A stretch of 45,710 bases of DNA, from positions 1 to 45,710 of the forward strand of contig JAUNPI010000003.1 in assembly GCA_030536875.1 (NCBI GenBank), given 5' to 3'. Below, in pieces: positions 24,201 through 45,710 of this stretch (positions are counted from its first letter, which is position 1; the number at the start of each line of letters is the position of its first letter). This DNA is from Clostridia bacterium (GTDB lineage Bacteria > Bacillota > Clostridia > Christensenellales > Aristaeellaceae). The notes below the pieces were generated by a model. It was not told the origin of the DNA, ran no database searches, and saw only the letters and a program-made list of their open reading frames with translations. A program made the position numbers and the translations under genes.

Positions 24201-24256
24201 ACAGACCGGAGATTCGCGCGAAGGCAGATCGTGCGAGATCCCCGGTCTGTTGTTTT
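24201..24256 (+). terminator. Rho-independent terminator after copA
   Basis: ACAGACCGG (24201-24209) pairs with CCGGTCTGT (24242-24250) around an internally structured loop. TGTTTT follows. Confidence 0.55.
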
Positions 24257-24267
24257 GAGGGGAGAGC

Positions 24268-26019
24268 CTATGCTTTTTGCTTATGATCCCTCTGAAGGAT
24301 GCGCCAAAGGGTTGTTCTGCCGATTCCCAGCCTCTCGGCGGCTTTGGTCTTGTTCATGTTTTCTTCTTTAAGGACACTGCAGACGACGGAATACGTGATT
24401 TCATCCAGTGTCCCCAGTGCGGATAGGGAGATACAGGAAGCGGCGGCGTTCTCCTCGCAGAGGATGGATTTGACTGCTTCACAGGTGATTTTGCTTCCTT
24501 CCGTGCAGCTGACGAGCTTTTGAATGACGCGATAGAGTTGAGCGGAGTTTTCCGGCCAATCGAATTGGGTCATGAGCTCAAGCGCGCTGTCGTCGAACCC
24601 GACGATTTGTTTGGTATAGTCGTAGTTGAATAGACTCGTGAGCTGCGTGGCGATTGTGGGAATATCGGCTTTTCGCTCGCGAAGAGGAGGAACCCGGCAG
24701 CAGATCAAAGACTGTTCGTTGACAAGATAGCTGTATAGCGGGCATTCTCGGTTTGCCGGAGAAATTCGGACAATGCCTTTGTTGCGTTTGAAGAGCAGGC
24801 TGGAGGCGATGCATTCGATGAGCTGTTTTTGCTGGGAATCTGAAAGAAAGTCGACATTGTCCAAGAAAAGAACGTGGTGATTCTCGCTGAAAGGCGAGTT
24901 TTCTTTGTGCAGGAGCGATTGAAAAGCGCTTTCACGCAGGTAGCGGAAATCGATCCGAACGAAGGGCTCTTTGCTGTAGAGGCTGTTGGCGTGCAGCACA
25001 TTGAGAAGCATGGAGAGATCCGTCCCCTCTTCGGCCAGAAGGAGGATGCTGTTTTTAAGGGGAGCTGCGCTTGAGAGGGTCTTTTCTAGGCTTTGCATGC
25101 AGCCGGTGTGATCGTAGTATGGCATTTCACCCGGCTGTTTGTATGAATATGCAAGAGCGCTGTCGTTCCAGACGCCTTTCTTTTCGCGCAGGGAGACAAG
25201 GGTACAGGGACTGCCCATGTATTCGTGTGCAGAAACCGCAACCAGATAGGTGCGGCCGGATAAGCGCTTGATCGATGTACTGTCCGGCGTGCTAGGGGCG
25301 GATGGGCAAAGATCGGACAGATCGCATACGCAACCCAGAACAGAAGGGGAACACTCGGAGAAAACGGGCTTGTTTTGGTTGTCGAAGAGGAGATATTCGA
25401 CGCCTTGCTGGGCGAGCACGTGCTTGAGAAGTTTCGCCTGCTGCGTCTTTTTTTCTAATGTGGAGAACATGGAGACGGCTTCATCCAGCGCGGCGGTGAT
25501 GCTCTCTATGCCGGAAGGGATTAGAATGCCATTCATTTGCTGAGATTTGGCTTCGCTGACGGCGATCGTATCGCCGATGACGACCGTATACCCGTCCTGA
25601 CGCAGTTTCAGAATGGTATCATGAACCATTTCTTCGCTTGTGATGGTGACGACTTTGATGGTTGTGCGGAGCATATCCGCAATTTCATTGATGCAGCTTG
25701 TCATGTTGGGGTAACCGACCAGCGCGACGCCGCTGCCGTGGCTGCCGACCAAACGAATGACCCGCAGAAGATCGTAGATGGTCGCGCGGATTTCGACAAC
25801 GGGCTTGCTCATATGCTGGGCCAGCAGGCGCGCGGTGCCGCCGCGAGAGAGGATCAGGTCGTAGGTTGAGCTATCCACGGCTTTGCACAGAGCCAGACCG
25901 GCGGAGAGGTTTCCGATTTTGATGGTGACAGACAGATCGTTCCGTGTTTTGCAGACATCGGATAAGACCTTGGCAAGCCCTTCGTTCGGCATGATGGCTA
26001 AAAGACGAATCTGACGCAT
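24268..26019 (-). CDS. PrpR_N-domain transcriptional regulator with a degenerate sigma-54-type AAA+ module and a C-terminal Fis-type HTH
   Basis: The N-terminal part, 'IRLLAIMPNEGL...LILSRGGTARLLAQHMSKPVVEIRATIYDLLRVI...VALVGYPN', is PrpR_N-like. The central region aligns to the bEBP AAA+ ('PLRERKADIP', 'FDWPEN') but lacks an intact Walker A, GAFTGA and Walker B. The C-terminal HTH is 'NKTKAAERLGIGRTTLWRIL'. AGGAGG lies 6 nt before the ATG at 26019. Confidence 0.8.
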   Translation of the reverse strand: MRQIRLLAIMPNEGLAKVLSDVCKTRNDLSVTIKIGNLSAGLALCKAVDSSTYDLILSRGGTARLLAQHMSKPVVEIRATIYDLLRVIRLVGSHGSGVALVGYPNMTSCINEIADMLRTTIKVVTITSEEMVHDTILKLRQDGYTVVIGDTIAVSEAKSQQMNGILIPSGIESITAALDEAVSMFSTLEKKTQQAKLLKHVLAQQGVEYLLFDNQNKPVFSECSPSVLGCVCDLSDLCPSAPSTPDSTSIKRLSGRTYLVAVSAHEYMGSPCTLVSLREKKGVWNDSALAYSYKQPGEMPYYDHTGCMQSLEKTLSSAAPLKNSILLLAEEGTDLSMLLNVLHANSLYSKEPFVRIDFRYLRESAFQSLLHKENSPFSENHHVLFLDNVDFLSDSQQKQLIECIASSLLFKRNKGIVRISPANRECPLYSYLVNEQSLICCRVPPLRERKADIPTIATQLTSLFNYDYTKQIVGFDDSALELMTQFDWPENSAQLYRVIQKLVSCTEGSKITCEAVKSILCEENAAASCISLSALGTLDEITYSVVCSVLKEENMNKTKAAERLGIGRTTLWRILQRDHKQKA

Positions 26020-26100
26020 AACGCCTCCTGATTGGTTCATTTTTAAACAAATCATATCACAAAAAAACAAGATTTTCAATATTTAAAAGATAAATTCCAT

Positions 26101-26169
26101 AAATGTTTCAAATAAAAACATTTTTGCAAGAATGAAATGTTTACATTTGAGATTGTTTTAGGCTATGAT
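26101..26169 (+). promoter_or_regulatory. AT-rich control region with AAATGT/ACATTT palindromes overlapping a putative sigma-A promoter for the catabolic operon
   Basis: AAATGTTT (26101-26108) and AAACATTT (26116-26123) form one palindrome. AAATGT-TT-ACATTT (26135-26148) overlaps a -35-like TTTACA (26140-26145). An 18-nt spacer leads to TATGAT (26164-26169). Confidence 0.45.
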
Positions 26170-26230
26170 AAAAAACGAAATAGAGATGAAATAAGAATAC
26201 TTGGCTGCCCAAATTCAAATTAAGGACGTG

Positions 26231-27262
26231 ATGCGCGTGAGACCTAAGCTGGCGATTACAATGGGAGATCCTTTGGGAATTGGGCCGGAAGTTACGGTAA
26301 AGGCGTTGGCGGATCTCTCCGAAAAGGAGTGTGTGCCGGTTGTGATTGGGGATGGGATGGTGCTGAAGGATGCGCTCGAATATTGCCGTCTCTCTTTGCC
26401 GCTCAGGCGGATTGAATCCCCTCTCGAGGCGAGTGGAAAACTGGGCGTTATCGAGTATATTGAACCGGTCAGCCTGCCCAGAGAAGACTATCGCTACGGG
26501 CAGGTGAGTGCTTCCGCAGGAGAATCGGCGTTTCAATATGTGACGGCTGCCATTGGCTATGCCATGAAGCGCGAGGTTGACGGCGTTGTGACAGGCCCCA
26601 TCAACAAAGAAGCCATTCATTTGGCCGGTCATCCCTATTCCGGGCACACGGAGATTTTTTCGGATTATACCCATACGAAGCAATATGCGATGCTGCTGAT
26701 GAGCGGGCATTTGAGGGTCATTCACTGCACGACACACGTCTCCATGCGGCAGGCCTGCGATCTGATCACCACAGATAGGGTCTATCATGTGATCGAATTG
26801 GCGGATCAGGCGATGAAGATGCTGGGGCTGGAGCGCTATCGGATCGGCGTAGCGGGTTTGAATGCGCACTGTTCCGAGAATGGATTGTTTGGAACGGAAG
26901 AGGAGCAGGCTATTATCCCTGCGATCAAGCTTGCCCGCAGCAAGGGAATCTGCGTGGAAGGACCGGTTCCGCCGGATACGGTCTTTGTTAAAGCGGTGGG
27001 CGGCCAATACGACGTCGTCGTTGCGATGTACCACGATCAGGGGCATATTCCGCTCAAGCTGATGGGATTTCGAATGGATGCGCAAAGCGGGACGTTTGCA
27101 TCGGTGAGCGGAATCAATACGACCATTGGGCTGCCCATCCTTCGCACGTCTGTGGATCATGGAACGGCATTTGACAGGGCGGGAAAGAACATGGCCAATG
27201 AGCAGAGCATGCTCGAAGCAATACGGCTTGCCGTTCAGATGGCGCCGTTCTATAGGGAATGA
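26231..27262 (+). CDS. PdxA-family NAD-dependent 4-phospho-hydroxyacid dehydrogenase (PdxA2-like)
   Basis: 'ITMGDPLGIGPEV', 'GHPYSGHTEIF', 'AMYHDQGHIPLK' and 'RTSVDHGTAFD' are hallmark PdxA motifs. It is adjacent to a DUF1537 kinase. Confidence 0.85.
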   Translation: MRVRPKLAITMGDPLGIGPEVTVKALADLSEKECVPVVIGDGMVLKDALEYCRLSLPLRRIESPLEASGKLGVIEYIEPVSLPREDYRYGQVSASAGESAFQYVTAAIGYAMKREVDGVVTGPINKEAIHLAGHPYSGHTEIFSDYTHTKQYAMLLMSGHLRVIHCTTHVSMRQACDLITTDRVYHVIELADQAMKMLGLERYRIGVAGLNAHCSENGLFGTEEEQAIIPAIKLARSKGICVEGPVPPDTVFVKAVGGQYDVVVAMYHDQGHIPLKLMGFRMDAQSGTFASVSGINTTIGLPILRTSVDHGTAFDRAGKNMANEQSMLEAIRLAVQMAPFYRE

Positions 27263-27269
27263 TGGAAAG

Positions 27270-28463
27270 ATGATCAAACTGGCTATTTTGGCGGATGATT
27301 TTACCGGCGCGCTTGATACGGCGGTTCAGTTTTCTTCGAAAGGAGCCGCCACCATGCTGCTCAAACCGGAAGCGCTGTCGAGAGGTTCCCTTTTCGATTG
27401 TCAGGTGGTTGCACTTGACATGCAGACCCGGCATCTCGCCAGAGACGATGCGTATGCTTCGGTTTATGCGGCCGCAAAGCGCATTCGGGAAAACGGAATT
27501 CCCTATCTCTATGTCAAGACGGATTCCGCGCTTCGCGGCAATATTGGCGCAACGCTGGAAGCGGTGGTCGGCGCATGGGGAGAAAGCGTGATCTTTGCGC
27601 CTTCCTATCCGGATACGGGCAGGATTGTACAGCGGGGAGTGCTGACCATAGAGGGGATTCCGGCGTCTCAAAGCCATTTTGCGCAGGATTTGTTCAATCC
27701 GGTTGTCCACGACAGCGTATGTGACATCATCGCGGAGCAATCTACAATCTTTGTGTCGGACAAGACATGTGCAGAGCGCGCCGTTGTGCTCAAGGATGCG
27801 GCGGACAATGCGGAGCTTCAACATATCGCAAGGGAAGCCGTTCAATCGGGAAGCACGCTGATGGCCGGATGCGCAGGATTGGCCCGCTTTTTGCCGGATG
27901 CGCTGCACTTGGAAACGCAAGGGGCGCCGATGCCAAAGGTCAGCTGGCCGATGGTCGTGATTTCCGGGAGCACGAGTCCGGTCAGCCTTGAGCAACTGCG
28001 GCGCGGGAAAGAGTATGGGTTTAGGTCGTATGTTTTTGAGGATGTCTTAGAGGAAAAGGCGAAAATTTTCCCGATTGTTCAGGGCGTAAAGCAGCTTGGC
28101 AGCGAGATGGGATTGATCATCGAAGTGGGGCGGAAGGCGGAAGGCGTTTCCGATTTGGCTTCCTTTGAGGAGAAGGGAAAGCGGATTGCGGATAATTTGG
28201 GGAAGGCGACCGAGCAAATCGTTCGTTCGGGATTTTCGGGTACGTTGTTTGTCTTCGGAGGCGATACGCTGGCCAGCGTGATCCGCCGATTGGGCGTGAC
28301 AAGCATTCAGCCCATATGCGAAATCGAATGCGGCGTGGTGGTCTCCCAAATCGACATCAATGGGCGCAAGCTTCCGCTGATTTCCAAATCTGGCAGCTTT
28401 GGCTCGGCAAACGTGCTGAAACACATATGTGAACGTTATATGAGAAGGGAATGGATTGCATGA
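27270..28463 (+). CDS. DUF1537-family four-carbon acid-sugar kinase (OtnK/DtnK-like)
   Basis: N-terminal 'LAILADDFTGALDTAVQF' and 'YVKTDSALRGNIG' are present. The length of about 398 aa fits the family. Confidence 0.85.
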   Translation: MIKLAILADDFTGALDTAVQFSSKGAATMLLKPEALSRGSLFDCQVVALDMQTRHLARDDAYASVYAAAKRIRENGIPYLYVKTDSALRGNIGATLEAVVGAWGESVIFAPSYPDTGRIVQRGVLTIEGIPASQSHFAQDLFNPVVHDSVCDIIAEQSTIFVSDKTCAERAVVLKDAADNAELQHIAREAVQSGSTLMAGCAGLARFLPDALHLETQGAPMPKVSWPMVVISGSTSPVSLEQLRRGKEYGFRSYVFEDVLEEKAKIFPIVQGVKQLGSEMGLIIEVGRKAEGVSDLASFEEKGKRIADNLGKATEQIVRSGFSGTLFVFGGDTLASVIRRLGVTSIQPICEIECGVVVSQIDINGRKLPLISKSGSFGSANVLKHICERYMRREWIA

Positions 28464-29371
28464 CGAATATCCGAGGGATTGTTGCGGCGATGCTGACGCC
28501 GATGAACCGGGATGAGAGCATCAACGTGGCCGAACTGCGCAGTCAAACCGAACGAATGATCGGCGCAGGGATGCACGGACTTTTCTGCCTAGGAACCAGT
28601 GGAGAAGCCTATGCCCTTGAAGAGAGGGAAAAGATTCGGGTGATCGCTGAGGTCGTTGATCGGTGTGCGGGGAGAGTGCCGGTGTATGCCGGATGCGGTT
28701 GTGTGACGACGGCGGAAACGGTGCGGCTTGCCAAGGCGGCAGAGAGGATCGGCGCCGATGTGCTTTCGGTTATCTGCCCCTATTTTGCGGTTGCGTCGCA
28801 GGAGGAGCTGTACAGGCATTTTATGGAGGTCGCCGACGCTGTTCATATTCCGGTTGTGCTGTACAACATGCCGGCGCGCACGGGCGTCAATTTGGACGTG
28901 GATACTGTGGGACGTTTATCCAAGGCCGGCAATATTGCGGGCATCAAGGATTCGAGCGGGAATTTTGACCAGATTCTTCAGCTGATCGAAAACACGGCGG
29001 ATGACTTTGCCGTCCTCTCCGGAAACGATTCGCTGGTGCTGTGGACGCTTCAGGCCGGGGGAAAGGGCGGAATATGCGCAATCGCCAACCTGTTTCCGCA
29101 GACGATGGCGTCGATCTATGAACTGTGGCGTCAAGGAGAATTCACCAAGGCCAAGGAAGCGCAGGATTCCATTCGAGCCATACGTCGTTTGCTGAAGCTG
29201 GGAAATCCGAACACGATGGTGAAGCTGACGGCAAATTTGATCGGACAGCCTGTGGGGCCATGCAGAAAACCATTTTGGACGGAGGATCAGCGCCTGATCG
29301 ATGAAATATCAAGGGTATTGAAGGAGCATTATGGAATACGCGTTGACGGAAAGGAATGGGGCTATGTGTGA
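28460..29371 (+). CDS. DHDPS/N-acetylneuraminate-lyase-family class I (pyruvate-dependent) aldolase
   Basis: 'LGTSGEAYALEEREK' is GTTGE-like and 'IAGIKDSSGN' holds the Schiff-base Lys context. The start overlaps the kinase stop as ATGA. Confidence 0.85.
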   Translation: MTNIRGIVAAMLTPMNRDESINVAELRSQTERMIGAGMHGLFCLGTSGEAYALEEREKIRVIAEVVDRCAGRVPVYAGCGCVTTAETVRLAKAAERIGADVLSVICPYFAVASQEELYRHFMEVADAVHIPVVLYNMPARTGVNLDVDTVGRLSKAGNIAGIKDSSGNFDQILQLIENTADDFAVLSGNDSLVLWTLQAGGKGGICAIANLFPQTMASIYELWRQGEFTKAKEAQDSIRAIRRLLKLGNPNTMVKLTANLIGQPVGPCRKPFWTEDQRLIDEISRVLKEHYGIRVDGKEWGYV

Positions 29372-30446
29372 GATCGTCCATGAGCTGCCGTGCCGGATCC
29401 TTCATGGACGCGGAGCGGTAGAGAAGCTGGCTGGCCGGCTGCCTGAAGAAAAGCTGGTCGTGATGAGCGAGGAGAACCTTGCCCAAACGGAGGTATTTGA
29501 GCGAATAAAAACGTCTTTTCCGAAAGCGAAATTCTATCTTCAATGGGGAGGGGAACCGAAGATATCGGACGTTCAGCGGGCGCTGGACGCCTTGCGGAGC
29601 GATCAACCGACGGCAATCGTCGGTGTGGGCGGAGGAAGTGTTTTGGATGTCGCAAAGGCGACGGCGCTGTTGATCGACAAGGGCAAGCCGGCCGCAGAGG
29701 CAATGGGACACGCCGATATGAAGCGAAGCGTCGCGCTGGCCCTGATCCCGACGACGGCGGGGACAGGAAGCGAGACGACGCCTAACTGCCTGTTGATCGA
29801 TGATCGTGACGGCGTGAAACGAGCGCTCATCGCCGGCGGCTGTGTTCCGGATATCGCCGTGTTGGACCCGGGAGCGACGCGTTCGCTGCCTGCGCCGGTT
29901 GCCGCCTATACGGGTGTCGACGCGCTGTGTCACTGTGTGGAATCCTCGATCTCGGTCAAGGCGAACGAGATCAGCAGGGCATGGTCCTTAGCGGGTATAC
30001 GTCTCATTTTGGCTTATTTGCCTAAGGCCGTCATGTCTCCAGAGGATGAAGAGGCCAGAGAAAAGATGCTCTTTGCCAGCTTCTTTGGCGGAGCCGCGCT
30101 GGCTGTTGCCGGAACGACGGCCGTCCACGCACTGGCTTATTCCCTTGGAAAGAGAGGCGTTCCGCACGGCGTTTCCAATAGCCTGCTATTTGAAATGGTG
30201 ATGGAGCATACGCTTGGCGAACCAAGGCGGTATATCGAGCATTATGACGATTGCGTGAACCTGATTCACAGTCTTCCCATCCCCACGATTGACCGTTATA
30301 ACGTGCAGGAACAGGAATGCGAGGCAATGGCGAGGGAGGCGATGGAACAGATCAGGCTGCTGGGCAATCACCCGGTTCAGGTGACGCAGGCATGTGCGGA
30401 TCGAATTTTCCGGTCGCTGTTTGAGAAGGAAGGGAAGAGGCGATGA
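29364..30446 (+). CDS. Iron-containing (group III) alcohol dehydrogenase family oxidoreductase
   Basis: 'AIVGVGGGSVLDVAKA', 'IPTTAGTGSETT' and His-rich 'CHCVES...HALAY...PHGV' are present. The gene overlaps the aldolase gene by 8 nt. Confidence 0.85.
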   Translation: MCEIVHELPCRILHGRGAVEKLAGRLPEEKLVVMSEENLAQTEVFERIKTSFPKAKFYLQWGGEPKISDVQRALDALRSDQPTAIVGVGGGSVLDVAKATALLIDKGKPAAEAMGHADMKRSVALALIPTTAGTGSETTPNCLLIDDRDGVKRALIAGGCVPDIAVLDPGATRSLPAPVAAYTGVDALCHCVESSISVKANEISRAWSLAGIRLILAYLPKAVMSPEDEEAREKMLFASFFGGAALAVAGTTAVHALAYSLGKRGVPHGVSNSLLFEMVMEHTLGEPRRYIEHYDDCVNLIHSLPIPTIDRYNVQEQECEAMAREAMEQIRLLGNHPVQVTQACADRIFRSLFEKEGKRR

Positions 30447-31825
30447 GCAGAATTTTGTTCTTTGACGATCGCTTTCTCCATGTCGTCCGTCATGCCAGAC
30501 GGCATATGGGTAGGGCGAAACTGATGGCCGATACGCTGTACGGAGATCCTGACCCGAATATTTTTGCCAACATTCCCAACGTGTTTTACAGCCCGACGAT
30601 CGGAAAATGGCTTATGTTGACATATGGCATGCATCTTCGAACGTTTGACGACGTCGTCCTTCTGCACGAGAGCGACGACGGCCTGCATTGGCGGCCATGC
30701 GATACGCGGGAGGAACTGACGCTTCAAACGCGCCGTTTTTCCCATCAGCTGTTTGAATTAGGGGCTTGCGGAGAGTACTCTCTCTATGTCGATGAGCGAG
30801 AGGAGAAGGAAGAGGAGCGCTTCAAATTGCTCGCCGTGCGCAAAGGCGGAAAAAAGGGGCTTGAATCCTGTCTGTTCACTTCCGCAGACGGCCTGCATTG
30901 GCAAGACAAACAGGTGGAGTGGCATCCGTCTCCGCCTGATTTGGGCCCTCTGTGTATATACTGGAATGCTCACAGGGGCAGCTATGTCATTGCGGCGAGA
31001 CCGGCGATGGTAGACCGGCGCGTGGCGCTGATTGAAACGACGGATTGGCGGCATTTTACAAAGCCGCAGGTCGTCTTGGAGACCGATGCGTTGGATACGC
31101 CGGTATGCGAATCCTATGGCCTGACCGTTTTGCCCTATGATGGTCACTATTTGGGGTTATATTGGCTTTTTCATCCCAATGCGGAACAGGTTGTCGGCAT
31201 GCCGGGCGGAACGAGCGGAAAATATTTTGACGGCTATGTGGACGCGCAGATGACGTGCAGCGAAAACGGATGGTATTTTAAACGCTCCCTTCGCGAGCCT
31301 GTGCTTGCCAACGGCGTGCCTGGCGAACCGGATTGCGGCTGCATCTATCCGCGTGGAATGCGCATGGATGGGAAGGGGCATATTCTCGTCGACGCCTGCG
31401 TTTATCCCTATGAGCATGGGAGATGGCGGGAATTTGTCCATGAGGAAAGGCCGCACAAGAGCATTGGCGTGTATACGATCAGAGAGGACGGCTTCTGTTA
31501 CTATCAAAACGAGGGCGGAGAGGCGTTTCTGGGATCCAGAGCGCTGTTGTATGAAAGCGGCGAAGTTGCTTTTAATGTCGAATGTCCGACAGGTTCGTTC
31601 AAGGTACAGGTGACGGATGTATTCGGCCGCGTCATGGAACATTATTCCTTTGACGAGTGTATTCCGTTTGTCGGGAATTCGCTTCGATATGCGCCCCGAT
31701 GGCACGGCGGTTACGATCTGACAGGATTAAAGGGAAAGACGTTTCGATTGGAGATGCGGCTAAAAACAGGGAGGCTGTATGCGATTCACGGGGGGCTGAA
31801 GCTGATTTTAAACCCCAATGCGTGA
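30443..31825 (+). CDS. Uncharacterised 460-aa protein, predicted beta-propeller glycosidase-like fold
   Basis: S/T-x-D-G-x-x-W-like blade motifs recur as 'ESDDGLHWRP', 'TSADGLHWQD' and 'TTDWRHFTKP'. There is no signal peptide or TM segment. An ATGA overlap links it to the ADH gene. I recognise no family with confidence. Confidence 0.65.
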   Translation: MSRILFFDDRFLHVVRHARRHMGRAKLMADTLYGDPDPNIFANIPNVFYSPTIGKWLMLTYGMHLRTFDDVVLLHESDDGLHWRPCDTREELTLQTRRFSHQLFELGACGEYSLYVDEREEKEEERFKLLAVRKGGKKGLESCLFTSADGLHWQDKQVEWHPSPPDLGPLCIYWNAHRGSYVIAARPAMVDRRVALIETTDWRHFTKPQVVLETDALDTPVCESYGLTVLPYDGHYLGLYWLFHPNAEQVVGMPGGTSGKYFDGYVDAQMTCSENGWYFKRSLREPVLANGVPGEPDCGCIYPRGMRMDGKGHILVDACVYPYEHGRWREFVHEERPHKSIGVYTIREDGFCYYQNEGGEAFLGSRALLYESGEVAFNVECPTGSFKVQVTDVFGRVMEHYSFDECIPFVGNSLRYAPRWHGGYDLTGLKGKTFRLEMRLKTGRLYAIHGGLKLILNPNA

Positions 31826-31859
31826 GAAATGAAATACATCGTAACAGGAGGTAAAGAAC

Positions 31860-32795
31860 ATGCGAAATCCAGCGGTAAGCGATGGGAGCCTGAGGGAGCG
31901 GCTTCGTCCCTATGCGCGGAACGTTGATCTGTATCTGTTTGTCGTCCCAGCTCTTGTCTATCTGTTTCTTTACTGCTATCTGCCCATGTACGGCATACAG
32001 ATTGCCTTTAAGGATTTTCGCATCGGGATGGGCATATGGGACTCTCCGTGGGTTGGCCTGAAACACTTTGAAAAATTTCTGGGCAATTCAACGAGCCGGC
32101 AGCTGATTTGGAATACGCTCAGGCTCAGCTTGATGACGCTGGTGTTCGGCTTTCCTCTGCCGATTGTGTTTGCGCTGCTTTTGAATGAGGTGAGGTATCC
32201 GCGGTTCAAGAAGGTTGTTCAGACCGTCTCTTATGCGCCTCATTTCATATCGACCGTGGTGCTGGTCAGCATGCTTTCGCTCTTTCTGGACAGCAACAAT
32301 GGCATCGTCAACAAGCTGATCGGCTTGTTTGGCATAGGACCATATAATTTCATGTCCAGTTCCGCGTGGTTTCCGAACATCTATGTGATATCGGATATTT
32401 GGCAGAACCTTGGCTGGAATGCGGTGATCTATATCAGCGCTCTGGCAGGCGTGGATATTGAATTGCACGAGGCCGCCAAGATTGACGGCGCCAATCGTTT
32501 GCAACGAATTTGTCATGTGGATATCCCATCCATCTTTCCGACGATTGCGATCATGCTGATCCTTCAAACGGGCAATTTGATGACGGTTGGATTTGAAAAG
32601 GCGTATCTGATGCAGAATGCGCTCAATACAGGGACATCGGAGATTATATCGACGTATGTCTATAAAATGGGTCTCTTATACAACCAGTACAGCTATTCGA
32701 CGGCCATCAATTTGTTTAATTCCGTTGTGAACTGCATCCTCTTGGTGACGGTTAACGGCATTGTACGCAGGCTGAGCGATTCGGGCCTATGGTAA
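31860..32795 (+). CDS. Carbohydrate ABC transporter permease (LplB/YtcP type)
   Basis: Six TM segments. The EAA loop is 'EAAKIDGANRLQRICHVDIP'. 'AGGAGG' is upstream. Confidence 0.9.
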   Translation: MRNPAVSDGSLRERLRPYARNVDLYLFVVPALVYLFLYCYLPMYGIQIAFKDFRIGMGIWDSPWVGLKHFEKFLGNSTSRQLIWNTLRLSLMTLVFGFPLPIVFALLLNEVRYPRFKKVVQTVSYAPHFISTVVLVSMLSLFLDSNNGIVNKLIGLFGIGPYNFMSSSAWFPNIYVISDIWQNLGWNAVIYISALAGVDIELHEAAKIDGANRLQRICHVDIPSIFPTIAIMLILQTGNLMTVGFEKAYLMQNALNTGTSEIISTYVYKMGLLYNQYSYSTAINLFNSVVNCILLVTVNGIVRRLSDSGLW

Positions 32796-32817
32796 AGGGA
32801 AGGAGACGTGATCAGGA

Positions 32818-33732
32818 ATGAGAAACGGGACGCAGGGCGCTTCTTTGAGAAGCTGGGATGATCGGGTGTTTGACGGAATTGCAGTCGCGTTATGCGCATT
32901 GGTGCTTGTGATGGTAGCGTATCCGCTCTATTATGTGATCATTTGTTCTTTCAGCGATCCGAATGCTGTGAATATGGGAAAGGTAGTCTTCTGGCCGTCT
33001 GGATTTACGCTGGAGGGATATCAGACCATTATGGATTATCAGCCGATTTGGGTCGGATACCGCAATACGATCTTTTATGCAATCGTCGGAACGGCATTTA
33101 ATTTGGCGCTGACGCTGCCATGCGCGTATGCGTTGTCGAGACCGGACTTCAAAGGGCGCAATGTCATCATGATGCTCTTCACGTTTACCATGTTCTTTAG
33201 CGGCGGAACGATTCCAACCTATCTGGTCATGAAGAATTTGAAATTGCTCGATTCCATTTGGGCCATGATTCTTCCGGGCGCTGTCAACGTCATGAACCTG
33301 ATCATCGCACGAACCTATTTTGCCAGCAGCGTTCCCTATGAGATTCAGGAAGCCGCCATGATTGACGGATGCAGCAACAGAAAGCTGTTTGTCAGTATCG
33401 TCTTGCCGCTCTCCATGCCGATGATTGCGGTCATCATGCTCTATTATTTGGTGACGCATTGGAACGTTTATTTTCGGGCGCTGCTCTACATGTCTTCTCC
33501 GTCGAAATATCCGCTGCAATTGTATTTGAGAAATATTCTTCTGCTCGATCAGATGTTGGATATGATGGAGGGCGATGCGGAAGCCATCGAGGCGATGACA
33601 AGGCGGCTTCAGATGAGGGCGTCGATCAAATACGGAATCGTTGTGGTTTCCTCAATGCCGGTGCTGATTCTGTATCCGCTTTTACAGAAGTATTTTGCCA
33701 AAGGCGTCATGGTTGGCGCTGTGAAAGGGTGA
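32818..33732 (+). CDS. Carbohydrate ABC transporter permease (LplC type)
   Basis: The EAA loop is 'EAAMIDGCSNRKLFVSIVLP'. The protein is polytopic. Confidence 0.9.
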   Translation: MRNGTQGASLRSWDDRVFDGIAVALCALVLVMVAYPLYYVIICSFSDPNAVNMGKVVFWPSGFTLEGYQTIMDYQPIWVGYRNTIFYAIVGTAFNLALTLPCAYALSRPDFKGRNVIMMLFTFTMFFSGGTIPTYLVMKNLKLLDSIWAMILPGAVNVMNLIIARTYFASSVPYEIQEAAMIDGCSNRKLFVSIVLPLSMPMIAVIMLYYLVTHWNVYFRALLYMSSPSKYPLQLYLRNILLLDQMLDMMEGDAEAIEAMTRRLQMRASIKYGIVVVSSMPVLILYPLLQKYFAKGVMVGAVKG

Positions 33733-33779
33733 TTGTAACCCATCGGAAGTGGGTGCAAATAAGAAAAGGAGGTTTACTC

Positions 33780-35408
33780 ATGAAAAACAGACTCAGAATC
33801 TTAGCGATGGTATTGGCGCTGCTGCTGACATGCGCGCCTATGGCTGCTTTGGGCGAAACAGAAGCAGATGCGATCGCTGCGCTCAACGCGTATCTCGTGC
33901 TTCCGACACCGGAACTTCCGGTTGTTCAGGAGCCGATGACGCTGACCGTCACCTTCCCCCGAAACGTGAAACACGGCAGTTTCGACAAGATGTGGTATAT
34001 TCAGGAATTGGCCTCCAAGACCGGCGTCACGCTTGACATTCAGGCGATCGAAGAATCCGGATGGGACGAGAAGATCGGGCTTCTCTTCTCTTCCGGAGAT
34101 TATGGGGACATTTTCCTCTATGGCCTTTCCATCAACGAGGCGAATCAGTACGGTATGGCCGGTTTGCTCAGACCGCTTGACGACCTGATTGCAGAGTATT
34201 CGCCGAATACGCAGAAGATCTATGAATCCTTTCCGGAGACGCTGCGCAATTTGACGGCGGACGACGGGCATATCTACATCGCGCCGGCCTACAACAATAC
34301 GCCTCGCGATATGCTTTTACAGTATTCCGATTGGGTCAACGCAGAGTGGATCGCCAATGTGGGCATGGAGATGCCTAAAACGCTGGATGAATTCTATCAG
34401 CTGCTAGTTGCCTTTCAAAACGAGGATCCGAACGGAAACGGCGTGGCGGACGAAATCCCGTGGTCCTTCATTTACAACGGGGATGGATATAACATGGCGC
34501 TTGGCGCGTTTGGCTACGTCAATGCCCGTCACGACGTGATCGACGGCGAGTATGTCTATGTACCCGCTCAGGAAAATTTCCGCCATTATCTGGAATTTAT
34601 GAGCAAGTGCTATCGGGAAGGGCTGCTGGACAGCGATATCTTCACCATGACGACCGACGACTACTTGACCAAGGTGATGAGCCTGAACGTAGGCTCTACG
34701 ATCGAGTACAACGTGACCTCCGAGGAAGAGGTGCTGAGGCGTCAGCTTCTTTCGCCGCTGGTCAGCGAATACAACGATACGCCCTGTCACCCGGGACGCA
34801 ATCAGGAGAAGACGGACAGCGGTTTGTGCATTTCGGTTCACGCTACGCAGGAAGAGGCCGTCGCCGCAGTGAAGCTGTTGGATTACTGGTACAGCGAAGA
34901 GGGAACATTCGAGATCAAGTGCGGCCCGGAATATGGCGTGAACGGCGCGGATTGGGGTTACATCCGCACGGTCAACGAGGACGGTTCCTACAGCTACGAG
35001 ATCATTTACGACGAGGAAGCCTTTGGCGGAAGCTATTTCGATTGCCGCATGTACAATGGGCTGGGCAATATGCCGTTCTGCTACACGCAGGCCCACGCCG
35101 ACGTGATCATCGGTGCGAATGTGAGTAATCAGTGGGTCACGACCTGCGTGGAAAACGCAGGGTTGTTGGAAGCCCGCCGCGTTGGTTATCCCGAGGGCGT
35201 GACCTTTACCGTGGACGAGCAGGATACCCTTGCGCTGTATGTGTTAATGGACAGTTATGTGGACCGCATGGTGGCCGAATTCATCACAGGCGCCGTTGAG
35301 CTGAGCGACGAAACATGGAACGCGTATGTGAGCACGCTTGAAGACATGGATTTGGAGACCTTGGTATCCGTGCGGCAGACTGCTTATGACCGCTGGAATA
35401 GCCGATAA
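33780..35408 (+). CDS. Large extracellular solute-binding protein (LplA type) of the sugar ABC importer
   Basis: The signal peptide is 'MKNRLRILAMVLALLLTCAPMAALG', possibly with a lipobox Cys. The roughly 540-aa size is typical of LplA-like oligosaccharide binders. 'AAAGGAGG' is upstream. The ORF-track N-terminal extension from 33369 overlaps the permease gene and is ignored. Confidence 0.85.
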   Translation: MKNRLRILAMVLALLLTCAPMAALGETEADAIAALNAYLVLPTPELPVVQEPMTLTVTFPRNVKHGSFDKMWYIQELASKTGVTLDIQAIEESGWDEKIGLLFSSGDYGDIFLYGLSINEANQYGMAGLLRPLDDLIAEYSPNTQKIYESFPETLRNLTADDGHIYIAPAYNNTPRDMLLQYSDWVNAEWIANVGMEMPKTLDEFYQLLVAFQNEDPNGNGVADEIPWSFIYNGDGYNMALGAFGYVNARHDVIDGEYVYVPAQENFRHYLEFMSKCYREGLLDSDIFTMTTDDYLTKVMSLNVGSTIEYNVTSEEEVLRRQLLSPLVSEYNDTPCHPGRNQEKTDSGLCISVHATQEEAVAAVKLLDYWYSEEGTFEIKCGPEYGVNGADWGYIRTVNEDGSYSYEIIYDEEAFGGSYFDCRMYNGLGNMPFCYTQAHADVIIGANVSNQWVTTCVENAGLLEARRVGYPEGVTFTVDEQDTLALYVLMDSYVDRMVAEFITGAVELSDETWNAYVSTLEDMDLETLVSVRQTAYDRWNSR

Positions 35409-35440: not shown

Positions 35441-35482
35441 GGGCTTCGCACCGGACGAAAAACCGGGGCGAAGCCCTTTTTT
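35441..35482. terminator. Bidirectional Rho-independent terminator
   Basis: AAAA, then GGGCTTCGC (35441-35449), an 18-nt loop, GCGAAGCCC (35468-35476) and TTTTTT (35477-35482). It lies between convergent genes. Confidence 0.8.
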
Positions 35483-35526
35483 GCGGCGCGCGTTTCTAAA
35501 GGTCTGCTTTTTTTCTATTCTTTTTC

Positions 35527-36288: not shown

Positions 36289-38337
36289 TTACTTTCCGGC
36301 GACGGCGTTTTCAGCCGCCACGCGCCCGTAATAGACCGCGGAGCCGATCGCCATGCCGCAGCAGGGATATTCCGCGTCAAACAGGCCGGTGAAGGCGACC
36401 TCGCCCGCAGCGTAGAGACCCGGAATCGGCGCGTCGTTCGTATCCAGAACGTGCGCGTCCGTGTCGATCTCAAGGCCGCCGAAGGTGACGGAGCTGCCCG
36501 GCGTCATCCGGAAGGCGTAATACGTCTCGCCTTCGACCGGGATCATGTACTCCGCGGGCTTGCCAAAGTCGTCGTCCGTACCCTTGGCGCAAAGCTCGTT
36601 GTAGCGCTCGACGGTGGAGGCCAGCGCCTCGCCGTCCACGCCGATCAGGCTCGCGAGCTCCTCGATGGTCGCCGCATGCGGCACATGCTCCATCGTCACG
36701 CCCCAAGCCAGCATCGGATAGGGCTCCACGCAGGCGCCGTCCTTGACGGCGGTGATGTAGAAGCCGCACGTGCTGTCCGCATCTGCCAGCGCCTGCGCCA
36801 CGTGGGACTGGTACGACCATTCGTTCACGACGCGCTCGCCGTCCTCGGAGACGATCAGGCCGGATTCCTCGTTGATGCCGCAGTAGCAGTCATAGCTCAC
36901 GTAGACGAGCTGGAGGCCCGGAGCGTCGAAGTTCTTCGCCCCGACAGCCTCGGCCATCGTCAGGCCGTCGCCGACGTTGCCCATCGGCACGCCGGAATTG
37001 ACGTTTGTGGGCAGGAAGACGTTGTACTTGGCGAGCATTTCCTCGTTGTGCGCGTAGCCGCCGGTCGCCAGAATGACGGCCTTCGCGTTCACCGTCACCT
37101 TGCCGCCGTCCGCCTTGTCGGCCTTGAGGCCCACCACGGCGCCGGTTTCATCGGTGATCAGCTCGGTTGCGCGGCAGTTGTAGAGAACCTTGCCGCCGTT
37201 CTCCTCGTAGAGATTGGTCAGCGGCACGGTGAAGTGACCGCCGTGGCCGCTCGTCTGTCCGCCGCCGCCCTGCACGTTGTGGACGCGCCACGGGGTCAGG
37301 GAGCTGTGGATCGGCTCGACGTCCTGAATCTGCACGCCGCGGTCGACCAGCCACTGGATGTTCTCGGCGGAGGCTTCGCAGAACGCGGTCACGAGCGCCT
37401 CGCTCATGATGCCGTCGCGGTCGAAGCTCTTGAGATACGCATACATCATCTCGGGCGTGTCCTCGAAGCCCTGCGCGGTCTGCCACGGCGTGCCGGCGCC
37501 GAGGATCTTGCCGCCGCTGCGGGCTGTGGAGCCGCCGGTCACGCCGGCCTTTTCCACCAGCAGCACGTTCGCGCCCGCCTCGAGCGCCGTCTGCGCCGCA
37601 GAGAGGCCGGCCGCGCCTGCGCCCACGACGACGACGTCCACGTCGAACGCCTCGTCGGTCGCCTCAGCCTTTTTGACCGGAGCGGACAGCAGCGCGTCCG
37701 CATGGCCGCCTGCCTCGCTCACGCACGCCGCGACGGCCTGCTTGATCGCCGCGCTGGTCACGGTCGCGCCGGAGACGGCGTCCACCGCCAGGGACTGATG
37801 CTTCACGATCTCACCCGGCAGCGTCTCGATCGGCGCGGTGCTCACCGCGTAGCCGATGCCGTAGGTCTCCTTGTGGTCGGTGACCTTGATGCCGGTGATG
37901 CTCGTTTCGTCGAAGGTGACCTCGACGGTCACATCGCCGTTGTTGCCCTTGGCGGAGGCGCTGTACGTGCCGGCGGTGTAGCCGGTCGCCTCGGGCGCTT
38001 CCTTGCCCATCGCCTCGTCGAGGCACTTTTGAAGCGCCTGCTTGACCGCGTTCGAGGAGACCGTCGCGCCGGCAATGCCGTCGACGTCCGCGGACTGCGC
38101 CGCCAGAATCGCCTCGCTCAGCGGCGCGGCGACCTCGGTGCCCAGATCGGGGGTTTCGCCGGAGGCGTCGATGGTCACCTCGGTGATCGCGCTGTCGCTC
38201 ACCGTCACCGTCACCTCGACGGTGCTGAGCATGCCCTGCGCGCCTGCGGTGTACGTGCCGGGCGTGTAGACCGCTTCCGCCAAGCCGCAGGCGGGAAGCA
38301 TGAGAGCCAGAAACAGAGCCCAGATTCCCTTTTTCAT
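36289..38337 (-). CDS. Extracytoplasmic lipoprotein flavin reductase: two FMN_bind domains plus a fumarate/urocanate-reductase-type FAD domain
   Basis: The signal/lipobox is 'MKKGIWALFLALMLPAC'. The two FMN_bind domains carry the flavinylation-type motifs 'DGIAGATVSS' and 'DAVSGATVTS'. The FAD dinucleotide fold is 'DVVVVGAGAAGLSAAQTALEAGANVLLVEKAGVTGGSTARSGG'. The length is 682 aa. Confidence 0.9.
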   Translation of the reverse strand: MKKGIWALFLALMLPACGLAEAVYTPGTYTAGAQGMLSTVEVTVTVSDSAITEVTIDASGETPDLGTEVAAPLSEAILAAQSADVDGIAGATVSSNAVKQALQKCLDEAMGKEAPEATGYTAGTYSASAKGNNGDVTVEVTFDETSITGIKVTDHKETYGIGYAVSTAPIETLPGEIVKHQSLAVDAVSGATVTSAAIKQAVAACVSEAGGHADALLSAPVKKAEATDEAFDVDVVVVGAGAAGLSAAQTALEAGANVLLVEKAGVTGGSTARSGGKILGAGTPWQTAQGFEDTPEMMYAYLKSFDRDGIMSEALVTAFCEASAENIQWLVDRGVQIQDVEPIHSSLTPWRVHNVQGGGGQTSGHGGHFTVPLTNLYEENGGKVLYNCRATELITDETGAVVGLKADKADGGKVTVNAKAVILATGGYAHNEEMLAKYNVFLPTNVNSGVPMGNVGDGLTMAEAVGAKNFDAPGLQLVYVSYDCYCGINEESGLIVSEDGERVVNEWSYQSHVAQALADADSTCGFYITAVKDGACVEPYPMLAWGVTMEHVPHAATIEELASLIGVDGEALASTVERYNELCAKGTDDDFGKPAEYMIPVEGETYYAFRMTPGSSVTFGGLEIDTDAHVLDTNDAPIPGLYAAGEVAFTGLFDAEYPCCGMAIGSAVYYGRVAAENAVAGK

Positions 38338-39647: not shown

Positions 39648-40070
39648 ATGACCATCATCGTCATCGACGGGCAGGGAGGCGGCATCGGGCGCGCGCTGAT
39701 CAGCGCGACGCTTCCGCTTCTGCCCGAGAAAACGCAGCTTTACGCCGTGGGCACCAACGCGATGGCGACCGCGACAATGCTGAAGGCCGGCGCGCAGCGC
39801 GGAGCGACCGGCGAAAACGCCGTCCGCTGGGCCGCGGAGCATGCCGACGTGATCATGGCGCCCATCGCGCTGGTGCTCAAGGATTCCATGATGGGCGAGA
39901 TCACGGGGGAGATGGCGGCATGCGTGGGGGCCAGCCGGGCCCGGCGCATCCTCGTGCCGACGGAGCGCTGCGGCACGCATGTGGCCGGCGTCGGCGGCGC
40001 GAGCCTGCAAAGCCTTGTCGACGACGCCGCGCGTCAGGCCGCGGCTTTCGCGAAGTCAGCTGAAATATAG
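39648..40070 (+). CDS. DUF3842-like small protein
   Basis: 'MTIIVIDGQGGGIGRALI...YAVGTNAMATATMLKAGA..GATGENA' matches my memory of the DUF3842 family. 'GAGGAGGA' is upstream. Confidence 0.6.
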   Translation: MTIIVIDGQGGGIGRALISATLPLLPEKTQLYAVGTNAMATATMLKAGAQRGATGENAVRWAAEHADVIMAPIALVLKDSMMGEITGEMAACVGASRARRILVPTERCGTHVAGVGGASLQSLVDDAARQAAAFAKSAEI

Positions 40071-40166
40071 GCCTATAGGAGCCGGTGGTGTGGATATGTA
40101 GTTTATCCTTGATGGGATAGCTATTGTGTGATGTACTGGATTCTGTATCTTTGCGGCTGATTCTAT

Positions 40167-41645: not shown

Positions 41646-41663
41646 CGAATGATTTCCTTTCTA

Positions 41664-45264: not shown

Positions 45265-45275
45265 CGTTTTTTGGA

Positions 45276-45584
45276 TTACGTTTCTTTCCGGATAACTTTT
45301 CCAATAACATCATGTATTGTGATCTCCTGTATCGCCTGTGCATGATCACCCTTGCAGAGCAAACGCCAATTATTTATTTTAATAATTCGATGCACAATTT
45401 GTTTACCTAGAAAGTTAAAAACAATAATATCTCCAACATAGTAATTTGTCGTTTTTGCAACGCGTAACAGGTCGCCATCATGATAGGTGGGTTCCATGCT
45501 GTTACCGCGAACAATAACAGGAATTTCATGCCCTTGTTCCAATTCATTCAAAACTAGCGTCCCTAGCATTTCATCAGCCACCAA
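45276..45584 (-). CDS. Small anchorless S26B (ER/archaeal/SipW-type) signal-peptidase-like protein
   Basis: 'VRGNSMEPTYHDGDLL', 'GDIIVFNF', 'IVHRII' and 'CKGDH' follow the order of SPase boxes B, C, D and E, with His in box D. No TM segment is present. The start is ambiguous among TTG 45584, GTG 45581 and ATG 45569. Confidence 0.6.
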   Translation of the reverse strand: MVADEMLGTLVLNELEQGHEIPVIVRGNSMEPTYHDGDLLRVAKTTNYYVGDIIVFNFLGKQIVHRIIKINNWRLLCKGDHAQAIQEITIHDVIGKVIRKET

Positions 45585-45710
45585 TTATTAATTCATACAA
45601 GGACAGTGCTTGTTTTTGAAGATATTGATATTCTTTTTGTAATGAGACTTCAAAGACAGGGATTGAAGATAATGTTTTGGATAAAATGCCAATTGAATTT
45701 ATAAGATGCT
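45574..45710 (-). CDS. 3' end of an upstream minus-strand gene truncated by the window edge (unknown product)
   Basis: My own reverse-strand translation gives 44 stop-free codons running in from the window edge, ending '...HLINSIGILSKTLSSIPVFEVSLQKEYQYLQKQALSLYELIIGG' with a TGA at 45576-45574. It abuts the peptidase start region. An open frame of this length in AT-rich DNA suggests coding. Confidence 0.4.
   Translation of the reverse strand, partial: HLINSIGILSKTLSSIPVFEVSLQKEYQYLQKQALSLYELIIGG

Follow-up and report, generated by a model that had tools for sequence, protein, structure and literature searches.

A nine-gene block in an Aristaeellaceae contig as a candidate operon for catabolism of an acid-sugar glycoside

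The window analysed here, a stretch of 45,710 nucleotides of contig JAUNPI010000003.1 from a Clostridia bacterium, carries a self-contained block of nine genes, comprising eight plus-strand genes (26231–35408) and a divergently transcribed regulator gene (Table 1). The open reading frame (ORF) list, the translations and profile matches from Pfam and NCBIfam bear out the first-pass annotation of this DNA in its placement of eight co-directional genes and in its labels for PdxA, the DUF1537 kinase, the aldolase, the iron-type alcohol dehydrogenase (Fe-ADH), the two permeases and the solute-binding protein; the binding-protein gene, however, starts at 33780, and the divergent regulator (24268–26019, minus strand) had been omitted. 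The genes are as tightly coupled as had been claimed: read in the sequence, the junctions at 28460 and 30443 are ATGA overlaps, that at 29364–29371 is an overlap of 8 nt, and 8 nt separate the PdxA and kinase genes. The block is lower in G+C (0.48–0.58 over 24–36 kb) than both flanks (0.60–0.68), and hairpins with T-runs are found near 24.2 and 35.45 kb, where terminators had been proposed. The upstream hairpin, which separates a copper ATPase gene from the end of the regulator gene, is missed by a simple terminator scan. No ATP-binding cassette (ABC) ATPase is encoded within the block, as had been observed earlier and as the scan of the window ORFs agrees. The arrangement is more than a product of chance, because the gene set recurs in other contigs with different gene orders, and the block is probably a catabolic operon acquired horizontally.

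Table 1. Features of the nine-gene block and its boundaries, in window coordinates
Feature	Position	Strand	Basis
Hairpin and T-run, upstream block boundary	24201–24255		CAGACCGG...CCGGTCTG then TTGTTTT, read from sequence
PrpR_N / AAA_lid_14 / HTH_8 regulator, divergent	24268–26019	-	Pfam
Sigma-70-like promoter candidate, TTTACA-18-TATGAT	26140–26169	+	Consensus scan, 10/12 matches; consensus match only
PdxA2-type 4-phospho-tetronate dehydrogenase (decarboxylating), predicted	26231–27262	+	Pfam PdxA, PDB matches
DUF1537 acid-sugar kinase, predicted tetronate 4-kinase	27270–28463	+	Pfam SBD_N and NBD_C
DapA-like class I pyruvate aldolase, predicted	28460–29371	+	Pfam DHDPS, 256 bits; residue alignment
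Iron-type alcohol dehydrogenase, predicted aldehyde-acid reductase	29364–30446	+	Pfam Fe-ADH and ADH_Fe_C
Cytoplasmic 460-aa propeller protein, predicted glycosidase/phosphorylase	30443–31825	+	AlphaFold2 model, Foldseek
ABC importer permease 1, LplB/UgpA-like	31860–32795	+	BPD_transp_1; weak UgpA and GlcT matches
ABC importer permease 2, LplC/UgpE-like	32818–33732	+	BPD_transp_1; weak GlcU, UgpE and MalG matches
Large lipoprotein solute-binding protein, acidic-oligosaccharide-binding type (predicted)	33780–35408	+	SBP_bac_8, SBP_bac_1, lipobox
Intrinsic terminator closing the operon, GC-rich hairpin	35441–35483	+	GGGCTTCGC...GCGAAGCCC then TTTTTT

The first two genes of the plus strand encode a dehydrogenase and a kinase. 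The PdxA protein matches the Pfam PdxA family with 347 bits and passes the NCBIfam TIGR00557 cut-off. Its PDB matches are led by 2hi1 (Salmonella PdxA2, 300 bits) and 6e85 (D-threonate 4-phosphate dehydrogenase, 294 bits), with biosynthetic PdxA (1ps6) at 181 bits; against NF002891, the model for D-threonate 4-phosphate dehydrogenase, it reaches 328 bits where the cut-off is 583. The genomic context is that of a PdxA2, with the DUF1537 kinase starting 8 nt downstream, and the scanned ORFs of the window include nothing like pdxJ. By these comparisons the protein belongs to the catabolic PdxA2 clade and does not fall with true PdxA. The kinase has the complete two-domain architecture of its family (SBD_N, PF07005, 134 bits; NBD_C, PF17042, 63 bits). 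Its best NCBIfam match is the D-threonate kinase DtnK (153 bits versus a cut-off of 450), ahead of OtnK (119 versus 350) and OiaK (22 versus 700), such that it falls within none of these equivalogs, and its best PDB match is 4xfr (100 bits). It is predicted to make the 4-phosphate of a C4 acid sugar.

The aldolase is 32% identical to Escherichia coli DapA. Alignment with E. coli DapA and NanA indicates that the Schiff-base lysine K161, Y133, T44 and R138 are retained (E. coli numbering), while the residue corresponding to Y107, which is part of the catalytic triad, is Phe in all 10 of the 10 module-linked aldolases and that corresponding to D187 is Asn; the full residue set of DapA (K161, Y133, T44, Y107, R138) is thus broken by Y107F. 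At position 138 the protein has Arg as in DapA, where NanA has Leu142. In DapA it is Arg138 that binds the C4 aldehyde-acid aspartate semialdehyde by its carboxylate. Scores against the two NanA equivalogs fall short (171 versus 281 bits and 155 versus 382 bits), and the second-best NCBIfam match is TIGR02313, a DapA-like family that cleaves a C7 diacid to pyruvate and succinic semialdehyde. The protein scores no higher against clostridial DapA (3a5f, 159 bits) than against Neisseria DapA (3flu, 176 bits), and no lysine context (dapB, asd, lysA) was found in the window or among the genes tabulated for six further annotated loci. Two copies of the aldolase occur in one locus of Clostridium estertheticum. 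We therefore take the protein for an old DapA-like paralogue suited to an aldehyde partner with a distal carboxylate.

The adjacent Fe-ADH has both domains of its family (N-terminal 119 bits, C-terminal 106 bits in Pfam), and a GGGS motif and Asp/His metal ligands are visible on reading its translation. Its NCBIfam matches include lactaldehyde reductase (169 bits), sulfoacetaldehyde reductase and 4-hydroxybutyrate dehydrogenase (146 bits). All equivalogs, among them FucO, EutG, 4-hydroxybutyrate dehydrogenase and SarD, are at or below 30–40% of their cut-offs, so that none of the characterised specificities fits.

The three distal genes form an importer of the CUT1/LplABC type, with two BPD_transp_1 permeases and a lipoprotein binding protein; the ATPase may be shared. 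The binding-protein gene has an AAGGAGG ribosome-binding site, and the lipoprotein signal peptide ends in LLTC. The closest solved relatives are 5xs8/5gx8/5gub, which we take to be Smon0123, a binder of unsaturated glycosaminoglycan disaccharides; 5g5y, presumably the fructo-oligosaccharide binder FusA; and the alginate-binding proteins AlgQ1 and AlgQ2. By this relationship the binding protein seems to be of a type that takes oligosaccharides, often acidic ones.

Between the enzymes and the importer lies the gene for a 460-aa protein that is cytoplasmic, without a signal peptide, and that has no match in Pfam or NCBIfam and no single-sequence match in the PDB. An AlphaFold2 model (mean predicted local distance difference test score, pLDDT, of 92.9) has a five-bladed beta-propeller followed by a C-terminal beta-sandwich. 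Foldseek aligns this model with members of glycoside hydrolase (GH) families GH32, GH130, GH43, GH137 (5mui) and GH159 with probability 1.00, template modelling (TM) scores of 0.6–0.67 (target-normalised) and 10–13% identity, so that the earlier guess of a glycosidase-like beta-propeller is backed by both the model and the fold search. A profile of the propeller family finds GH32 invertase at an E-value of 3e-5 and GH130 at about 1e-3, and distant relatives match Pfam GH32N below threshold only. The protein thus has the five-bladed propeller and GH32-like beta-sandwich of these enzymes and, by sequence, is a member of none of GH32, GH43, GH130, GH137 or GH159. An alignment of 18 sequences has invariant D8, D9, D117, D166, R186, R192, D215, D218 and E324 (alignment positions only); D117 is invariant in a wider alignment as well, and the aspartate of the GH32 RDP motif aligns with Asn175 of the propeller. 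Homologues number 42 by word index and 847 representatives at E ≤ 1e-30 by exhaustive profile search. On the modelled fold, we regard the propeller as glycosidase- or phosphorylase-like, its family being unclassified. It may free the sugar acid, as the first-pass annotation had proposed, but could instead remove a capping sugar such as beta-L-arabinofuranose, or act as a phosphorylase; GH137, one of its fold matches, is presumably a beta-L-arabinofuranosidase acting on rhamnogalacturonan II (RG-II).

The divergent regulator matches PrpR_N (151 bits), AAA_lid_14 and HTH_8 in Pfam, and its ATG at 26019 is preceded by an AGGAGG ribosome-binding site. Its match to Sigma54_activat is partial (22.7 bits), the AAA+ core is degenerate, and no sigma-54 motif (TGGC-N8-TGC at -24/-12) is present in 26020–26230, upstream of pdxA. 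With neither an intact AAA+ domain nor a -24/-12 promoter, it does not have the features of a sigma-54-dependent PrpR-type activator, unlike sister regulators in other loci (designated L; here L071–L073), which have strong sigma-54-domain matches. The window protein may be a sigma-54 activator that has been converted to sigma-70 dependence. No riboswitch or leader RNA was matched by Rfam within the window.

The first-pass annotation had proposed a search for recurrence of the gene set, and the four-enzyme core does recur, in shuffled orders and with five kinds of transporter. Flanks of at least 5 kb are available to either side of the aldolase gene in 45 loci, of which 40 have PdxA, kinase and Fe-ADH genes within 9 kb of it, and the aldolases of the core are 52–74% identical to that of the window. 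Cultured Clostridia carry aldolases of 56–64% identity with the same four-enzyme set, usually together with a PrpR_N/sigma-54 activator; the carriers include Alkaliphilus metalliredigens QYMF, Clostridium estertheticum, Hydrogenispora ethanolica and Petroclostridium sp. X23, and the same set is present on the contig that carries a Marasmitruncus massiliensis protein. A metagenome scan with an alignment of the aldolase subfamily returned 80 more loci, many of them from human and animal guts. The four-enzyme core is common in gut Clostridia.

All neighbouring ORFs of these loci were clustered and representatives annotated, which gave PrpR-type regulators in 38 loci, a 387-aa BNR_2 protein in 23, DUF386 in 20, LplBC-type permeases and TAXI binding proteins in 19 each, fused DctM in 18, a FAD_binding_2 flavoprotein in 15, 2-hydroxyacid dehydrogenase in 13, DctM of DctPQM-type tripartite ATP-independent periplasmic (TRAP) permeases in nine, TctABC (TctA/TctC) in five and CitMHS in four. 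Three 'unknown' minus-strand clusters (360, 438 and 472 aa) were disregarded as probable antisense ORFs that displace real genes, such as the DHDPS gene in L082. Most sister importers are carboxylate systems, and TctABC and CitMHS are typically polycarboxylate systems. Since the sister modules use TAXI-TRAP, DctPQM, TctABC or CitMHS importers, the substrate would be a carboxylate and probably a polycarboxylate. E. coli nanQ, annotated as N-acetylneuraminate anomerase, belongs to DUF386; in the loci, DUF386 is found with monomer importers only and never with the ABC variant. In the TctABC variants (L094, L113, L129, L152, L076) there is nearly always a D-2-hydroxyacid dehydrogenase together with a LarA_N-like protein, a putative 2-hydroxyacid racemase. 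Two ABC-type loci encode a protein of 705–806 aa whose best PDB match is a GH121 beta-L-arabinobiosidase (E-value of 1.4e-4).

The BNR_2 protein is cytoplasmic and falls in clusters of more than 3000 sequences that are named 'sialidase family protein' and are abundant in gut metagenomes. Its model (pLDDT 85.6) matches GH33 sialidases and a KDNase (1eur, TM 0.74 target-normalised, E-value of 4e-17). It occurs in L097, L147, L100, L115, L073 and 18 other loci. In human-gut loci, L097 and L147 among them, the genes run regulator, kinase, ADH, aldolase, PdxA, BNR_2, two permeases and binding protein, and BNR_2 there takes the place beside the ABC importer that the 460-aa propeller has in the window. 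Homology of the two proteins was considered and rejected: the hhalign probability is 22% and driven by Asp-box motifs, and they are treated as non-homologous occupants of the same slot. The human-gut loci L137, L146, L147, L153, L155 and L159 encode an additional 557-aa protein that resembles GH13_18 sucrose/glucosylglycerate phosphorylases by its motifs and a weak Alpha-amylase match, which may point to an organic-acid glucoside as a further form of substrate. In the same six loci, and also in L156, a P-loop protein of 317–333 aa is encoded downstream of the sialidase-fold gene. L082, with the aldolase nearest to that of the window (74% identity), lacks the propeller; its slot after the binding protein (15488–17152) holds a different protein, which looks on reading the sequence like a fusion of an FGE/sulfatase-modifying-factor-like and a BNR/sialidase-like domain.

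The distribution of the propeller was followed in a genome scan with the 18-sequence alignment as the query. Clusters of the window type, with propeller, the same importer, the four enzymes and the same type of regulator, are present in Clostridia contigs at 53–86% identity and in other gene orders; the same nine genes are reordered in L001, L004, L009 and L080, and one version of the cluster is split into two divergent operons. In these loci the importer and propeller are 70–82% identical to those of the window whereas the kinase and ADH are 31–56% identical, and therefore the modules have recombined while the functional set was kept. The 62 genome hits are all uncultured metagenome-assembled genomes, from Chloroflexota, Latescibacterota, Opitutales, Planctomycetes and others. 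Recurring beside the propeller relatives of L010–L063 (marine and other) are sulfatases in 26 loci, a protein of about 900 aa without annotation in 19, major facilitator superfamily transporters in 17 and BNR_2 proteins in 12, and a 2-hydroxyacid dehydrogenase also recurs beside the relatives outside Clostridia. A link between these distant loci and the Clostridial modules through shared accessory proteins was examined and dropped as not specific, the 2-hydroxyacid dehydrogenases being 31% and the BNR_2 proteins 25% identical. Two further distant relatives, found by protein search, adjoin a heparinase-II/III-like gene or a GH78 rhamnosidase gene.

In the pathway that we propose for the block, the lipoprotein binding protein and the two permeases would import a small acidic oligosaccharide, with the ATPase encoded elsewhere, and the propeller would cleave the glycoside in the cytoplasm, either freeing the acid or stripping a cap such as beta-L-arabinofuranose. 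The aldolase would form a Schiff base with the 2-oxo acid and cleave it between C3 and C4, giving pyruvate and 2,3-dihydroxy-4-oxobutanoate, with Arg138 holding the distal carboxylate. The Fe-ADH would reduce this aldehyde to a tetronate, the DUF1537 kinase would convert the tetronate to its 4-phosphate, and PdxA2 would oxidise C3 to a beta-keto acid that loses CO2 to yield dihydroxyacetone phosphate (DHAP). The net products would be pyruvate, DHAP and CO2 in a redox-neutral scheme. The PrpR_N regulator would probably sense the acid or a pathway intermediate and activate a sigma-70-type promoter. The first-pass annotation had read the genes as one pathway for a 2-keto-3-deoxy acid; that they form a functional unit is upheld by the 40 of 45 loci, and the chemistry gains indirect support from Arg138, the carboxylate importers, the NanQ-like DUF386, the GH33 fold and the PdxA2 clade.

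The size of the acid is suggested by the enzymes. A substrate of the kinase and PdxA2 must be a C4 acid hydroxylated at C3 and C4, and the aldolase would release C3 pyruvate and keeps the carboxylate-binding Arg; an acid that would suit all three is a C7 4-hydroxy-2-oxo dicarboxylate, namely a 3-deoxy-2-heptulosaric acid. That the operon serves a glycoside of a C7 3-deoxy-2-ulosaric acid, with Dha as the best candidate, is the reading we favour, at somewhat short of an even chance; that the substrate is Dha itself we hold to be rather doubtful. Dha is 3-deoxy-D-lyxo-heptulosaric acid, and side chain D of RG-II is L-Araf-beta1,5-Dha, beta-linked to the galacturonan backbone (bioRxiv 10.64898/2026.03.13.711244). 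In hand-drawn Fischer projections, cleavage and reduction turn the D-lyxo centres C5 and C6 of Dha into C3 and C2 of D-threonate, an outcome that agrees with the best family match of the kinase and with the second-best PDB match of PdxA (6e85). The GH121-like protein of sister ABC loci and the presence of GH137 among the modelled fold matches of the propeller hint at a link to RG-II through arabinose. To our knowledge, Dha is the only natural C7 ulosaric acid that is glycosidically bound. Of the other acids considered, 3-deoxy-D-manno-octulosonic acid (Kdo), 2-keto-3-deoxy-D-glycero-D-galacto-nononic acid (KDN), N-acetylneuraminic acid (Neu5Ac) and the product of 4,5-unsaturated uronates were rejected, as their cleavage gives C5, C6 or C3 fragments that cannot feed a tetronate kinase and PdxA2.

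Several points weigh against this reading. Gene content, coupling of translation, conservation of the four-enzyme module, folds and active-site residues are shown, but every substrate and the order of the steps are inferred, and the kinase, Fe-ADH and PdxA all score below the curated NCBIfam cut-offs for catabolic equivalogs. Kinases and ADHs are 24–56% identical between loci, and their specificities may differ accordingly from one locus to another. The aldolase passes the NCBI TIGR00674 dapA cut-off (227 versus 206 bits), which is why its homologues are named 4-hydroxy-tetrahydrodipicolinate synthase in databases; we argue that this pass, and the corresponding one for pdxA, are misleading as to function. 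The sialidase-fold protein also accompanies TRAP or CitMHS importers of monomers, which is odd for a glycosidase, and its substrate may not be a glycoside. The composition of the TctABC variants suggests that these import a 2-hydroxy acid that would be oxidised to the 2-oxo acid before aldol cleavage. With regard to the propeller, the four enzymes are not near its relatives in any genome hit outside the Clostridia clade; those distant relatives are in an anionic-glycan setting, with sulfated-glycan contexts; and GH143, the family of the only known DHA-ase, BT1020, is absent from the PDB sequence and profile matches of the propeller and from its top 50 fold matches. Finally, the abundance of the module sits uneasily with the rarity of Dha.

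The alternative that survives best, though an unlikely one in our estimate, keeps the same pathway logic for an acid other than Dha, namely another 4-hydroxy-2-oxo dicarboxylate or a 2-hydroxy precursor; examples would be another 3-deoxy-heptulosaric stereoisomer, an oxidised heptose or a derivative of 3-deoxy-D-arabino-heptulosonate (DAH), or an acid of microbial, algal or host glycans, and the tetronate could then be D-erythronate. Nothing tested fixes the stereochemistry or source of the acid, and PdxA2-type enzymes are reportedly active on both 4-phospho-D-threonate and 4-phospho-D-erythronate, according to work by Zhang and colleagues from 2016. The 2-hydroxyacid dehydrogenase and LarA-like protein of the TctABC variants, the sulfatases beside propeller relatives in marine bacteria, and the non-plant habitats of some carriers (a meat-spoilage psychrophile, an alkaline metal reducer, sediment) would all suit such an acid. 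Dha is favoured over it by our knowledge of no other natural bound C7 ulosaric acid, by the D-threonate kinase as best match of the kinase, and by the hints of a beta-L-arabinofuranosidase-type partner and the abundance in human gut, both of which fit RG-II.

It is quite improbable, in our view, that two independent two-step routes merely travel together, one a Dahms-type branch in which a 2-keto-3-deoxy-pentonate or -hexonate is split by a DHDPS-family aldolase to pyruvate and glycolaldehyde or lactaldehyde, which a FucO-like Fe-ADH reduces to a diol, and the other the known route for D-threonate or D-erythronate. Either pair of enzymes is a known combination that can stand alone. Lactaldehyde reductase ranks high among the matches of the Fe-ADH, and DUF1537 kinase with PdxA2 is a published two-step tetronate route. 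The four genes, however, remain together in 40 of 45 loci through changes of order, regulator and transporter, usually with a single importer per locus; the aldolase keeps a carboxylate-binding Arg that a neutral aldehyde does not need; and no dehydratase for a 2-keto-3-deoxy-aldonate was found in the window or in the annotation of accessory genes. A housekeeping or salvage role, with a true DapA for lysine and with PdxA and the DUF1537 kinase for pyridoxal 5'-phosphate synthesis or 4-hydroxythreonine recycling, is barely credible: it can call on the TIGR00674 and TIGR00557 passes, on the database names that follow, on the ability of DUF1537 kinases to phosphorylate 4-hydroxythreonine and on that of PdxA2 to replace PdxA, but the operon is predicted to be inducible and has an importer and a glycosidase-like gene, dapB, asd and pdxJ are not nearby, PdxA groups with PdxA2, the aldolase, with Y107F and D187N, resembles clostridial DapA no more than it does proteobacterial DapA, and C. 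estertheticum has its two aldolase copies in one locus.

The genes that flank the block, namely those for a copper P-type ATPase, Rrf2, ThiF, GNAT and a flavoprotein reductase, give no clue to the substrate. On the left, 21626–24157 (plus strand) encodes a heavy-metal P-type ATPase with two HMA domains, and on the right, 36289–38337 (minus strand) encodes a flavoprotein reductase with FMN_bind and FAD_binding_2 domains; both are unrelated to the operon. A second island, at 40000–45710, has a much lower G+C of 0.37–0.46. Its minus strand encodes an NTP_transf_5 nucleotidyltransferase (40167–41645), an ABC transporter with ATP-binding domain (41664–43499) and a long ORF (43441–45264), and the island looks like a horizontally acquired export cluster.

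No description of the gene set or of Dha catabolism was found in the full-text literature searches, in agreement with the earlier claim that the pathway is undescribed; an unassigned mention in the neighbourhood network of Zhang et al. 2016 is possible. The further proposition that the block represents the first catabolic route for Dha, a sialic-acid-like system widespread in gut and environmental Clostridia that leads by way of D-threonate to pyruvate, DHAP and CO2, that its ABC importer in the window takes up fragments of side chain D, and that the propeller founds a new GH family as a beta-L-arabinofuranosidase or DHA-ase, is put forward tentatively and is on balance unlikely. If it were true, it would close the gap on the fate of Dha after its release from RG-II, would provide a marker for RG-II scavenging by gut Firmicutes, and would explain cross-feeding of Firmicutes on rare sugars that Bacteroides release from this glycan. 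It would also widen the DUF1537/PdxA2 paradigm, so far one of imported tetronates, to those formed within the cell from a larger acid. The module is abundant, with some homologue clusters comprising thousands of metagenome sequences, and is annotated as DapA, PdxA and sialidase; if it is catabolic, automated predictions of lysine and vitamin B6 synthesis would be wrong in the carrier genomes. The family of the 460-aa propeller, which lacks a Pfam model and counts some 850 representatives at 50% identity, is a candidate for a new family of carbohydrate-active enzymes.

Among known systems, the nearest in its final steps is the route of the DUF1537 kinases (DtnK/DenK) and PdxA2, by which D-threonate and D-erythronate are reportedly catabolised, as Zhang and co-workers are said to have established in PNAS in 2016. 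The last two predicted steps are the same, with 4-phosphorylation of a tetronate followed by oxidative decarboxylation to DHAP. The DUF1537 clusters described in two later papers are of the ltnD/otnK/otnI/denD/otnC type. In the window, by contrast, the tetronate is predicted to be made in the cell from a larger acid by aldolase and Fe-ADH, the route is tied to the import of a glycoside, and the scores of the kinase and PdxA fall well short of the curated cut-offs for equivalogs.

For the release of the acid, the comparison is with Bacteroides thetaiotaomicron, in which BT1020 (GH143 DHA-ase and GH142 beta-L-arabinofuranosidase) and BT0996 (GH137) remove side chain D of RG-II (bioRxiv 10.64898/2026.03.13.711244). 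The five-bladed propeller of GH137 (5mui) is among the fold matches of the window protein, but there is no sequence similarity to BT1020 or BT0996, and the window protein is cytoplasmic and has an extra GH32-like beta-sandwich. A direct link to the GH143 DHA-ase was considered and abandoned, this family never being among the matches of the propeller, the BNR_2 protein or the 705-aa accessory protein.

The aldolase step has a counterpart in the 2,4-dihydroxyhept-2-ene-1,7-dioate aldolase of TIGR02313 ('HpaI-NOT-DapA'), a DHDPS-family enzyme that cleaves a C7 diacid, as is proposed here, to pyruvate and a C4 aldehyde-acid, in its case succinic semialdehyde, and Fe-ADHs of the 4-hydroxybutyrate dehydrogenase type, which reduce succinic semialdehyde, offer a precedent for the ADH step. 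The window proteins score far lower against these models (aldolase 201 versus 397 bits, ADH 146 versus 500), the aromatic-degradation context is absent, and the product in this case must bear 2- and 3-hydroxyls for the kinase and PdxA2.

The nan system of sialidase, NanQ and NanA follows the same logic, in which a 3-deoxy-2-ulosonic acid is released, its ring is opened and a class I pyruvate lyase cleaves it, and sister loci likewise carry a GH33-fold protein and a DUF386/NanQ homologue next to the lyase. The lyase here is DapA-like, with Arg in place of Leu142 of NanA, and in place of NanK and NanE there are Fe-ADH, DUF1537 kinase and PdxA2, so that the aldehyde product would not be a hexosamine. 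The window itself is without BNR_2 and DUF386 and has the unrelated five-bladed propeller.

In the lower glucarate/galactarate pathway, a 2-keto-3-deoxy-aldarate is split by GarL to pyruvate and an aldehyde-acid, which is reduced by GarR (tartronate-semialdehyde reductase) and phosphorylated by GarK. The proposed route has the same sequence of aldolase, semialdehyde reductase and kinase, but with a C7 substrate and a C4 instead of a C3 fragment, hence the additional decarboxylating PdxA2 step. The protein families also differ, being DHDPS and not HpcH, Fe-ADH and not HIBADH, and DUF1537 and not glycerate kinase. The enzyme families of the block are all known; what is new is their combination, in which an upstream branch would feed the tetronate route by a logic resembling that of sialic acid catabolism, together with a glycosidase-like family that is as yet unclassified.

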